Assembly: GCA_037441475.1 (NCBI GenBank)
Contig: JBBISB010000001.1
Location: forward strand, 366,418-398,417
DNA from: Candidatus Iainarchaeum sp.
Lineage (GTDB): Archaea > Iainarchaeota > Iainarchaeia > Iainarchaeales > CSSED10-239
Reading direction: 5' to 3'
Length of the DNA stretch: 32,000 nt
Shown here: in pieces, positions 1-26,982 of the stretch
How positions within the stretch are numbered: the stretch's first letter is position 1
How the letters are laid out: every line of letters begins with the position of its first letter
Notes under the pieces: model-generated
The model's database searches: none
Told to the model about the DNA's origin: nothing
The model's input: only the letters and a program-made list of their open reading frames with translations
Program-made: the position numbers and the translations under genes

Positions 1-913
1 TTTTATTTTGTTTTAGTAAATAATTATTTTTATTTTGCCTTTTTAGAAATCTTTTAACATTTGATTTTTTTAATCTTATGTTTGAAGGAAATACCTTATA
101 ACCTAAAAAATCAACACCTTTGCTTACTAAGTTAATATAAATTTTATTCTTTGGAACATCTAATAATAGTTCTTTACTTAAAAATAATTTAATTTTTCTT
201 CTAAAAACCTTTAAATCTTTTTTAGAGTTTGAAAATATTAAAAAATCATCAACATATCTATAATAAAGTTTAATTTTCAAAGTATGCTTAACATATTGAT
301 CTAATTGATTTAGATAAATATTTGCAAACAACTGAGAAGTTAAATTACCTATAGGAATTCCTTTTTCAGTATTATTTACATTAAAAGAATAACTATCAAT
401 TATTTGATATATTAGAGAAAGTAACCTTTCATCCTTAATTCTTTTTTTGATTATTCTTTTTAAAGTGGGTTTATGAACAGAAGGAAAGTATTTTTTAACA
501 TCTTGGTTTAAATAATATTTTGGAGGATTAGTGGTTTGAATGACATTTTTAATTTCAAAAAGGCCTTTATGTGTGCCTTTTCCTTTTCTGCAAGCAAAGG
601 AATTATTTATAAAAGTTTTATCAAAAATAGGTTCTATGATATTAATTATTGAATGTTGAACAACTACATCTCTAAAAGTTGGAGCACTAATAATTCTTTA
701 TTTAGGTTCATAAACTTTAAAACTTCTGTAAGGAGAAAATTGAAAATTTTCTGAAATTAATTGATCTTGTAATAAAAATAGCTCCTTTTCTAAATTTGTT
801 GTAAATTGCAAGACATATTTTTTATTAGGTGTTGATTTTTTTGCTTTTTTATAAGCATTAAAAAGATTTTTAAAAGAAGTAAACTCTTTCCAAAGGTTAT
901 TGTATGATTTCAT
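1..913 (-). CDS. DGR-type reverse transcriptase; 3' end cut by the window edge; one in-frame TAA at 698..700
   Basis: The minus-strand frame is open from the ATG (911..913) to base 2, apart from TAA at 698..700: ...FKVYEPK*RIISAPTFRDVVVQHSIINIIEPIFDKTF... The part after the stop has no Met, so the ORF track lists only 698..913. RT motifs read by hand: SFACRKGKGTHKG; GIPIGNLTSQLFANIYL (IGNLTSQ at 332..352, the [I/L]GxxxSQ signature of DGR RTs versus QGxxxSP in group II intron RTs); YRYVDDFLIF (YVDD at 245..256); VDFLGYKV. Confidence 0.8.
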
Positions 914-1150
914 TTTTAAAAAAACTTATTTAAAGTTAAAAGTTATTACAGATTTCTTTTTACAGACTATAAAAATACTAAATGTAATAACTTATCTTTA
1001 TATTTGATTTTTTAACATAAAAACAATAAAGTTTTTATGGCATACATCATATGCAATCAGGAAACATTTTACAGATGTAGTTTTTTAAAATATTCGCTTT
1101 ATATGTTTTTTTAAAAAAAACAAAAATATAACATATAAACTCTGATAAAA

Positions 1151-1172
1151 CCTTATTTCTTTAAAAATAAGG
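1151..1172 (-). other. Inverted repeat (8-bp stem, 6-nt loop) 5 nt downstream of the VR/stop codon
   Basis: The plus strand reads ccttattt-ctttaa-aaataagg, and the arms are perfect complements. It could be a DGR target-recognition hairpin or simply a terminator-like structure. Confidence 0.45.
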
Positions 1173-1177
1173 AGAAA

Positions 1178-2545
1178 CTACTGAACGCAGCGCAAGCCGA
1201 AGAAGTCGGTCCGGCTTGTAGGAATGTTGGTCAAGTTCAGGGACAAGACACCGGCACTAGAGTCATTGAGCCAGCGACCACCGCGCAAAAAAGCGTATAC
1301 AGTCTTACTTGTGTCATTTATATTACTATAAGTATAAAGCCTACCAACACCATTATTCGCATTATAACTATTACTTGTAAGTAAAAATAAATCTTTATAC
1401 TTTAAAGTAGTGTTACCTAAATTATCAGAATAAATATATTGGTTTCCTCCACCACCTTTTGAATAATCAAAAAAATTAAAGCCAGAAGTATAATTACTAT
1501 CATCAGAATTATTAAATCCATCAGGCTGGTCTTTTATTTGGATAGTATCACTAGTCCATTGCCAAACATTACCTGCTAAATCCCAAATTACCTCTCCATT
1601 AGTTAAAGTTAAAGTTCTTTTTGTAATTCCTGAAAGCTCGTCAAAACCGTCCATGGCCCTAGAGGATGATGAATTTCCTCTTGGAAGGTATCCTGAACCA
1701 ACTTCTCCACCAGACCAGTTGGAGGGAACTTGTTCAATATTTCTTACAATTGTCATCCATTCGTTATTAGTTATTAAATGACCACCGATAGCTTCACAAG
1801 CGGCTATTGCTTCGGTTTGGGTAATTCTTACTATTGGAGAGCCTTCTGGAGTGGACACTAAGGTTCCTGGTGTTGGACATAATTCATAATTATAAGTATT
1901 AGATGTTAAAGAACCAGTATTACAATTAGGATAATCAGCTACAAGATTTCCTTTGCCATCACCATTTACATCCATTTTCATCTGATATTTTGAAACACAA
2001 AAACCCCCTCTTTCATTCATTGTACCATAAAGGTGGTTTCCAGGAACAGGAATAAATCCTTCTGGACAAGAAGATGGATATTTAATATTTTGACGAAGAG
2101 AGGTTTTGGTTATCATTCTATCATTATCAAGGTAAAAAACAATATTTAAGTTGTCTTCTAAAATACCATGATCAATTACTGCTGTCTGGTTTGCAGTAAT
2201 TGTTACTGGTGGGTCTAATGGATTAATATTAGTATTTCCGTGCAAGGAATAACCAGTTATGGTTAAAGAGGTGAAAGGAGAACCATAAGGAGGATTATAC
2301 TCTAAAATAGTTCTGCCATTTATGGAATCTTTTACTTGCAAATAAAAAGAAGTTTCTGATTCTGTGTAAATATCAAGACTTGAGGTTTTACCTAAGGAAT
2401 CATTGGTAAAACCTTTTCCCCAAGAAACAATTATTGCAATAATAGCAACAGCAACAACTATTAAAAGAATGGTTGCAATTAATGGAGAAATTCCTTTCCT
2501 TTTTTTATTTTCCATTTGAAAAAAAATATTTGTATCTATACTCAT
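1178..2545 (-). CDS. DGR variable (target) protein: archaeal type IV pilin-like N-terminus plus FGE-sulfatase / C-type-lectin-fold domain with a C-terminal variable region
   Basis: The N-terminus KRKGISPLIATILLIVVAVAIIAIIVSWG matches the pilins at 29439..30950. The likely true start is ATG 2513..2515 (MENKKRKGISP). The C-terminal half has FGE-sulfatase landmarks: GFIPVPG...FCVSKYQM, ITQTEAIAACEAIGGHLITNNEWM, GNVWQWTSD, FLRGGRW and FGLRCVQ-stop. This is the usual scaffold that carries DGR variable regions. Confidence 0.85.
   Translation of the reverse strand: MSIDTNIFFQMENKKRKGISPLIATILLIVVAVAIIAIIVSWGKGFTNDSLGKTSSLDIYTESETSFYLQVKDSINGRTILEYNPPYGSPFTSLTITGYSLHGNTNINPLDPPVTITANQTAVIDHGILEDNLNIVFYLDNDRMITKTSLRQNIKYPSSCPEGFIPVPGNHLYGTMNERGGFCVSKYQMKMDVNGDGKGNLVADYPNCNTGSLTSNTYNYELCPTPGTLVSTPEGSPIVRITQTEAIAACEAIGGHLITNNEWMTIVRNIEQVPSNWSGGEVGSGYLPRGNSSSSRAMDGFDELSGITKRTLTLTNGEVIWDLAGNVWQWTSDTIQIKDQPDGFNNSDDSNYTSGFNFFDYSKGGGGNQYIYSDNLGNTTLKYKDLFLLTSNSYNANNGVGRLYTYSNINDTSKTVYAFLRGGRWLNDSSAGVLSLNLTNIPTSRTDFFGLRCVQ
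1181..1300 (-). other. Putative DGR variable region (VR); boundaries approximate
   Basis: These are the last ~40 codons of the target gene (YAFLRGGRWLNDSSAGVLSLNLTNIPTSRTDFFGLRCVQ). By hand count, 1181..1297 is about 55% GC with coding-strand A about 15%. The next 100 nt of the same gene (1301..1400) are about 25% GC with coding-strand A about 39%. The 3' end is GC-rich (ggcttgcgctgcgttcag), resembling an IMH element. Confidence 0.7.
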
Positions 2546-26095: not shown

Positions 26096-26251
26096 AAATG
26101 TATAATGTAGGGTTTAGTTTAAAAAGATTATTCTTAAGGGTTATTTCTCGGCCAGCTACCCTCCTAAAAAAAGAATATATGTTTCAATTACCTAGTTTAT
26201 TTTGTTTAATGATTTAATTGTTTTTTTTAAAAAATAAAAAGGTGATTTAAA

Positions 26252-26422
26252 ATGCAGATATTATATAGAAGAGAACTATCAAACTTTGAAACTAAGTTTT
26301 TAACAAACATCAAAAGTACTTTGCTTAAAAGAATGGAGATTGGGCAAATGAAGAAGAGCCACAACCATATGCTTATAGATGTTTTAAGTGAGATTGATTA
26401 TAGAAAGAGTCATAATAGTTAG
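26252..26422 (+). CDS. Unlisted small ORF (56 aa), hypothetical
   Basis: An ATG lies 6 nt after an SD-like ggtga: MQILYRRELSNFETKFLTNIKSTLLKRMEIGQMKKSHNHMLIDVLSEIDYRKSHNS. It is below the ORF-track size cutoff and I recognise no motif. Confidence 0.3.
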   Translation: MQILYRRELSNFETKFLTNIKSTLLKRMEIGQMKKSHNHMLIDVLSEIDYRKSHNS

Positions 26423-26490
26423 AGAGAAAAAAGGCAAAATTAGAAGAATACATTAGAAATATAAATATTATGTAGCTAGTAAATAGATAT

Positions 26491-26982
26491 ATGGCTATTT
26501 CCAAAAAAGCCTTTGCATCAATAACAGTCCTTCTATTCATGCTCTTTTTTTTATTTATAACTTTCGAGAATAAGTTAAAGGACACCTCTGATTTTATTAT
26601 CATAAAACAAGTAGAGACCAGAAAAGAGAGTATCTACTTAAGTTACGAAAGTCTTTTGAAAAACACCTTAAATGACTGTGTTAGTGATCCTTTGGTTGTT
26701 AAGGAAAAAGTCATTCTAGAGAGTGTTAGGTAGGGTGTTAAAAATGATTTTTTCATAAGAAACAATATTTTAAAAACAGAAAATAAAGTTTCTTTACTTC
26801 TTCCAGAGATTATAAAAGTTATAATCTATAAACCAAATAAGTATATCACCATAAAAGAAGTGCACATCACTAAAGGTGCACTTTATCAAGATAATCTAGG
26901 GTTTACTGTTAAGACAAGAAAATACAAATCAACTTTTCTTTTTCCTGACAATTATGTTATTAGAAAGGTGATGTTTTGTTAA
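26491..26982 (+). CDS. Pilin-like/hydrophobic N-terminus protein with an in-frame TAG at 26731..26733
   Basis: The listed ORF is MAISKKAFASITVLLFMLFFLFITF...ESVR (80 aa). After TAG the same frame stays open for 82 codons, GVKNDFFIRNNILKTENKVSLLLPEIIKVIIYKPNKYITIKEVHITKGALYQDNLGFTVKTRKYKSTFLFPDNYVIRKVMFC, to TAA 26980..26982. Confidence 0.55.

Follow-up and report, generated by a model that had tools for sequence, protein, structure and literature searches.

Probable young pseudogenes behind four in-frame stop codons in a 32-kb segment of a Candidatus Iainarchaeum genome

Four genes within a 32,000-nucleotide stretch of the genome of Candidatus Iainarchaeum sp. (GCA_037441475.1, hereafter G000), encoding a reverse transcriptase (RT), a pilin-adhesin, an SDR-like oxidoreductase and a small membrane-anchored 'pilin-like' protein, are each interrupted by an in-frame stop codon beyond which the reading frame continues. 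The whole of this stretch, G000:C1:366418-398417, is referred to here as the window. We conclude, with a probability of roughly 0.85, that each of the four stops arose independently and only in this lineage, as a nonsense mutation in a non-essential gene of an eroding genome, and that the genes are ordinary young pseudogenes; the lineage underwent a recent genome-wide burst of gene inactivation. Translation would end at each stop to give truncated products that are presumably non-functional, and it would be only the youth of the lesions that keeps the downstream frames open, with selection on the four genes either relaxed beforehand or newly lost. The lesions would have arisen mainly through G-to-T changes at codon position 1 (GAA to TAA, GGA to TGA) and single-base slippage in homopolymers. 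Knowledge of translation is unchanged by these findings.

Interrupted genes and their further damage

The stops lie at 698-700 in the RT gene (TAA, minus strand), 11664-11666 in the adhesin gene (TGA, minus strand), 22354-22356 in the SDR-like gene (TAA, minus strand) and 26731-26733 in the pilin-like gene (TAG, plus strand). Translation confirms these positions as well as the open continuations reported in an initial annotation of the window, which extend over 29 codons in the adhesin, 66 in the SDR-like gene, 82 in the pilin-like gene and at least 232 in the RT, the last reaching 264 codons once the full genome is used. The same annotation estimated that random frames should close about every dozen codons, in good agreement with a genome-wide mean stop-to-stop distance of 12.9 codons. 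On the assumption of geometrically distributed frame lengths, a continuation this long has a probability of less than 1e-8 for 232 codons, 0.001 for 82, 0.005 for 66 and about 0.1 for 29, and the adhesin tail is not significant by length alone. The suggestion that the continuations are coding, and that the genes are interrupted rather than being chance open reading frames (ORFs), is nonetheless borne out for all four. In the RT, SDR-like and pilin-like genes the sequences of relatives align across the stops; in the adhesin, for whose C-terminus no clear orthologue was found in relatives, the evidence consists of a Pfam domain, Flg_new_2 (InlB-B type), that spans the TGA, and an internal repeat.

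All four stops are reproduced, at 100% identity to the window, in Logan contigs that were assembled separately from run SRR11582163, two of which are recorded in two samples. These contigs also carry two frameshifts at 100% identity: contig L070 contains the adhesin TGA together with the adhesin frameshift at 12571-12587 and the split in a fifth broken gene described below, and the SDR-like and pilin-like stops are found in L068 and L066 respectively. No shared motif, of the kind expected from a methylation-motif or systematic-error context, was seen around the stops.

The RT gene (1..913, minus strand, with the first 304 of its 336 codons in the window) is of the type found in diversity-generating retroelements (DGRs), which are known from DPANN archaea and from bacteria of the candidate phyla radiation (CPR). 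Its Pfam match to RVT_1 (1.4e-22) runs over the stop, the position of which is occupied by E in 10 of 11 aligned homologues (within EPKERIIS) and by R in the other; in G003, a closed genome of the same genus that we used whole for comparison, the corresponding codon is GAA. The IGNLTSQ and YVDD motifs are intact, and IGNLTSQ, invariant in the alignment, conforms to the DGR RT motif [I/L]GxxxSQ. With the stop at codon 72, the product would end at 71 aa, before every RT motif.

The rest of this retroelement has been dismantled. A single repeat at 1175..1295 (minus strand) is a hybrid of the variable repeat (VR) and the template repeat (TR), with a VR-type 5′ flank and a TR-type 3′ flank, and was left by a deletion of ~1.1 kb between VR and TR that took with it the accessory bAvd gene, a 128-aa ORF and one repeat copy. 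The fusion explains why a repeat finder, blastn and A-tolerant scans, applied both locally and genome-wide, detect no TR/VR pair in G000; the type of A-tolerant scan that fails in G000 yields clean TR/VR pairs at both G003 RT loci. Each of these loci includes a target gene, bAvd, and TR/VR mismatches that occur at TR adenines only, and the G003 bAvd (PF22296, 2.2e-21) is located between VR and TR. The former target gene in G000 (1178..2545, minus strand) encodes a 455-aa FGE-sulfatase / C-type-lectin-like protein (PF03781, 2.6e-10) and shares 82% nucleotide identity with the G003 target gene. The single hybrid copy and the loss of the 1.1 kb with bAvd indicate that the cassette was disabled by recombination between its own VR and TR, to which the nonsense codon in the RT is added. 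The element resembles the DGRs of DPANN archaea and CPR bacteria in its IGNLTSQ-type RT and its adjoining FGE-sulfatase/C-type-lectin-like target, with complete cassettes present in G003, but differs from them in being dead, through VR-TR fusion, loss of bAvd and truncation of the RT at codon 72.

The two G003 loci, at L024:4575-7430 and G003:C1:~627500-629900, appear to be live, with FGE-sulfatase-type targets. We also note that Logan contig L074 breaks inside the VR/TR hybrid (near window position 1200), which could mean variant read paths, arising from residual VR diversity or from an undeleted allele.

The adhesin gene (11574..14419, minus strand) corresponds to a protein of ~950 aa with a class-III signal peptide and CHB_HEX_C_1, Fn3_assoc and InlB-B type repeats, and it has three lesions: a frameshift at 14264-14298, a region with two G6 runs, a second frameshift at 12571-12587, and the TGA. 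The first of these falls directly past the signal peptide, and the product would already stop there, well upstream of the TGA. An adhesin frameshift is visible in comparison with G003_683538. An earlier copy of the internal repeat reads WGGACSG where the broken copy reads WS*DCSS, and because the earlier copy has Gly at this position, the TGA probably replaced a Gly codon, GGA.

The SDR-like gene (22156..22908, minus strand, 251 codons) has uninterrupted homologues both in a close sister sequence (P0001, 91% identity) and in G003 (66% identity over residues 1-251), and Glu occupies the position of the stop in all homologues. Besides the stop, five replacements fall at columns that are invariant elsewhere; the gene shows six unique changes at such columns, compared with one, a conservative change, in the 91% identical sister. 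The replacements include alteration of the cofactor-binding motif from GATGDLG to GATVDLR with the loss of both glycines, and the product would be 184 aa long with a damaged cofactor-binding site.

The pilin-like gene (26491..26979, plus strand, 163 codons) is conserved in its family, with no interruption in 19 of 21 genomes, and its stop in G000 would leave a product of 80 aa. A fifth broken gene in the window, one absent from the initial annotation's list, encodes 168 aa (7438..7943, minus strand) and is frameshifted at a T7 run (7752-7767); its G003 orthologue aligns in two frames.

Uninterrupted orthologues thus align across the lesion in the SDR-like, pilin-like and RT genes, and further decay is present in the adhesin, SDR-like and RT loci, the pilin-like gene being the exception. 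Three of the four genes therefore contradict the view that each has one stop and is otherwise undamaged: two frameshifts also interrupt the adhesin, the motif glycines are missing from the SDR-like protein, and the RT sits in a dismantled DGR. Progressive decay of this kind, which the initial annotation itself named as the mark of ordinary pseudogenes, is what we see at these three loci.

Broken genes across the genome

G000 comprises 769 kb in two contigs, with 28% GC. A scan for same-frame ORF pairs, as first proposed, returns ~160 pairs that are mostly ordinary neighbouring genes and is uninformative; we used instead a census of orthologues, in which the ORFs of G000 and G003 were each compared with the other genome by tblastn (631 orthologues) and a stop was counted when it was in-frame and flanked by good alignment. 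In G000, 41 of these 631 are broken, 27 of them by stops and 21 by frameshifts; the lesions number 72 in total, and two or more occur in each of 18 genes. In the opposite direction, the comparison reveals no frameshifts in G003 and only eight genes with stops, most of which look spurious, being short ORFs or N-terminal extensions.

The lesions in G000 are strongly clustered. When 72 lesions are placed at random in proportion to gene length (5000 trials), 65.6 genes are hit on average and never fewer than 56, compared with the 41 observed; similarly, an average of 5.7 genes and a maximum of 13 are hit at least twice, compared with 18. They are also unevenly spread with respect to conservation, with five lesions in the most conserved quartile and 26 in the least conserved. 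Transport, metabolic, tRNA-modification and surface genes are among the disrupted genes that Pfam can name, and include a PALP enzyme, TctA, PRPP synthase, GlmS, MscS, a DsbA-like protein, Trm56, MnmA, a FlaI-like (pilus) ATPase and a YoeB-like toxin. The 39 disrupted-gene orthologues that were scanned with Pfam, 13 of which have no family match, include no family of ribosomal proteins, aminoacyl-tRNA synthetases or RNA polymerase.

An ABC-transporter operon at G000:C1:91033-93531, consisting of one ATPase and two ABC-2 permeases, has five frameshifts over its three consecutive genes, and the whole operon appears to be decaying. The gene for topoisomerase I (type IA; G000:C1:475545-477662) has a TAG at codon 671 of 706, past the zinc ribbon, that cuts off the last 35 residues, a loss of the C-terminal tail that the enzyme probably tolerates; the adjoining PALP-enzyme gene contains eight counted stops and a frameshift.

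The window itself holds five of the 41 disrupted genes, where 1.7 are expected per 32 kb (Poisson P ~0.03); with 24 such windows in the genome, ~0.7 would be expected to reach that count. The argument that four recent nonsense mutations in one window are so unlikely as to require base-call error or readthrough is not supported in a genome with at least 41 disrupted genes and such an expectation.

The spectrum of stop-forming changes could be examined in 18 clean alignments against G003 codons, representing 17 distinct stops (the RT was compared with both of its G003 paralogues). Eight of the alignments (seven distinct stops) are explained by a single G>T change, Glu GAA to TAA and in one instance Gly GGA to TGA, and two further Glu-to-TAG cases fit G>T from GAG; the remainder are A>T, G>A, C>T and T>G. 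The nonsense mutations of G000 are thus dominated by G>T at codon position 1, from Glu to stop. Frameshift junctions coincide with homopolymers of at least six bases in 10 of 24 cases, compared with 3.25 expected, and the other 14 lie elsewhere; the excess is consistent with slippage. A mutator arising from lost repair of 8-oxoguanine finds no support: both G000 and G003 retain an intact HhH-GPD glycosylase, and a search for AGOG matched no genome, controls included, and is hence uninformative.

This pattern is familiar from Sodalis and Mycobacterium leprae, recently host-restricted bacteria with young pseudogenes. In those systems of reductive evolution, as here, lineage-specific nonsense mutations and frameshifts occur in accessory genes, lesions pile up in genes and operons that are already dead, close relatives keep intact orthologues, and the stop-making substitutions are mostly GC-to-AT (G>T, G>A, C>T). 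G000 differs in its modest load, about 6.5% of genes with an orthologue in the sister genome, and in representing a DPANN archaeon that already has a very small genome. Set against the closed G003 genome, it gives a limited but clean picture of genes being lost from an already reduced DPANN genome, with one clear case of a DGR ruined by VR-TR recombination. For annotation, the four loci and ~37 others in G000 should be marked as pseudogenes, not taken as evidence of recoding or of a variant code, and gene counts should leave out fragments such as the 71-aa and 142-aa RT ORFs.

Polymorphism, assembly error and readthrough

Three observations weigh against interpreting all four stops as young pseudogenes. 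The TAG of the pilin-like gene is its sole lesion, and the gene, with no unique changes, gives no proof of relaxed selection. The Logan contigs may share reads with the metagenome-assembled genome, in which case their agreement rules out an error of the assembler, though not a variant specific to the sample. Finally, a comparison of stop-codon contexts, also suggested at the outset, shows G or C at the +4 position in 9 of 17 internal stops and in 69 of 437 genuine terminators, and this is a type of context that tends to be leaky; an excess of G/C at +4 is, however, expected of random nonsense mutations within coding sequence.

Among the alternatives, the one that survives best, improbable as it is, is population polymorphism, in which stop alleles dominate in the sample and intact alleles coexist with them, so that the stops would be segregating loss-of-function variants and not fixed pseudogenes. 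A contig from another assembly that is 96% identical in DNA has TAT (Tyr) where the pilin-like gene of G000 has TAG, the SDR-like gene is intact in a homologue with 92% DNA identity, and the break of the RT-containing Logan contig within the VR/TR hybrid could reflect alternative read paths. At a distance of 4-8% in DNA, however, the intact versions belong to other strains or species rather than being alleles of this population; the Logan contigs show the stop allele only, and the multiply-hit genes imply long-standing inactivation. We infer that no intact allele coexists at appreciable frequency.

It is harder still to attribute the stops and frameshifts to errors of assembly or consensus in a metagenome-derived genome whose real genes are intact. 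G000 is a metagenome assembly with three 100-N gaps and a suspicious perfect tandem duplication (described below), and the excess of frameshift junctions at long homopolymers also speaks for such errors, but more than half of these junctions (14 of 24) are away from long homopolymers. The separately built Logan contigs are identical to the assembly over every lesion that they cover, and random errors would scale with gene length, unlike the clustered lesions observed here, which spare conserved genes. Nor would base-call noise give a 1.1-kb deletion of Avd and TR, or missense changes at invariant glycines.

The least probable alternative is appreciable readthrough or suppression of stop codons, such that some full-length protein is still made. 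It draws on the release factor aRF1, encoded within the window (7958..10507, minus strand; Pfam eRF1_1/2/3, Intein_splicing and LAGLIDADG_3), which is interrupted by a 434-aa LAGLIDADG intein (8660-9961, minus strand; GGQ|C...HN|S). The initial annotation placed this intein at the GGQ motif, and it is indeed inserted directly past this catalytic motif, with splicing and homing-endonuclease domains, C at position 1, an HN end and a +1 Ser; no description of it was found in a literature search on aRF1 inteins. The accompanying speculation, that dependence on splicing makes termination conditional, fares poorly, since G003, whose aRF1 is 81% identical over 848 aa and contains this intein too, is without these lesions, having no frameshifts and a handful of mostly spurious-looking stop genes.

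The open downstream frames and the commoner G/C at +4 of internal stops could also be read as signs of readthrough. The other evidence runs in the opposite direction. All three stop codons are in use as terminators, ending genes where G003 C-termini end (TAA 271, TAG 105, TGA 61; n=437), and the stops under discussion are conserved in no relative. No tRNA with anticodon CTA, TTA or TCA, the suppressors that the initial annotation suggested looking for, is present among the 39 tRNAs predicted by ARAGORN with and without introns, and the same program finds no selenocysteine (Sec) or pyrrolysine (Pyl) tRNA in G000. The affected loci bear other inactivating damage, and the 21 genes with frameshifts are beyond rescue by readthrough. 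We regard it as very doubtful that leaky termination, which could follow from aRF1 splicing at the GGQ loop, allows some interrupted genes such as the pilin-like gene to yield full-length protein; if it did, it would soften selection against nonsense mutations and help to explain the tolerance of so many.

Two related candidates were rejected. A variant genetic code or stop reassignment is contradicted by all three stops ending conserved genes, by sense codons in relatives and by the lack of a suppressor tRNA. Programmed recoding, as with Sec at UGA, Pyl at UAG or readthrough, likewise involves an in-frame stop with an open frame beyond it that supplies the rest of a recognisable protein, but here the stops are private to the lineage and not conserved in relatives, and programmed recoding is therefore excluded; the involvement of three different stop codons, the absence of a dedicated tRNA and the accompanying frameshifts are further differences. 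Of the interpretation first offered for the window, the coding continuations, the interrupted genes and the intein after GGQ stand, and the need to invoke base-call error or readthrough does not.

A tandem duplication and other features

The RT and the DGR lie inside a perfect 6,352-bp tandem duplication, the adjacent copies of which (G000:C1:358557-364908 and 364908-371259) are 100% identical, the second occupying window positions 1..4842, and the broken RT and the dead DGR therefore occur twice. Also duplicated are an FKBP gene and codons 1-615 of Hel308, the latter giving rise to a truncated 630-aa helicase copy. A Logan contig end coincides with the boundary of the repeat, and the duplication may be real or an assembly artefact.

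No tmRNA was found in G000. The intron option of ARAGORN contributes three intron-containing calls, two of them doubtful, to the 39 tRNAs; the calls include a tRNA-Trp with a 135-nt intron (G000:C1:176305-176513) and a tRNA-Asn with a 901-nt intron (G000:C1:582048-583041), the latter of which may be spurious.

Close homologues are labelled Woesearchaeota, Nanoarchaeota or simply 'archaeon', pointing to a small DPANN archaeon of Woesearchaeota-like type. The gene content of the window includes Rad50, HerA, Hel308, PCNA, Cdc6 and a tRNA-splicing endonuclease alongside aRF1.

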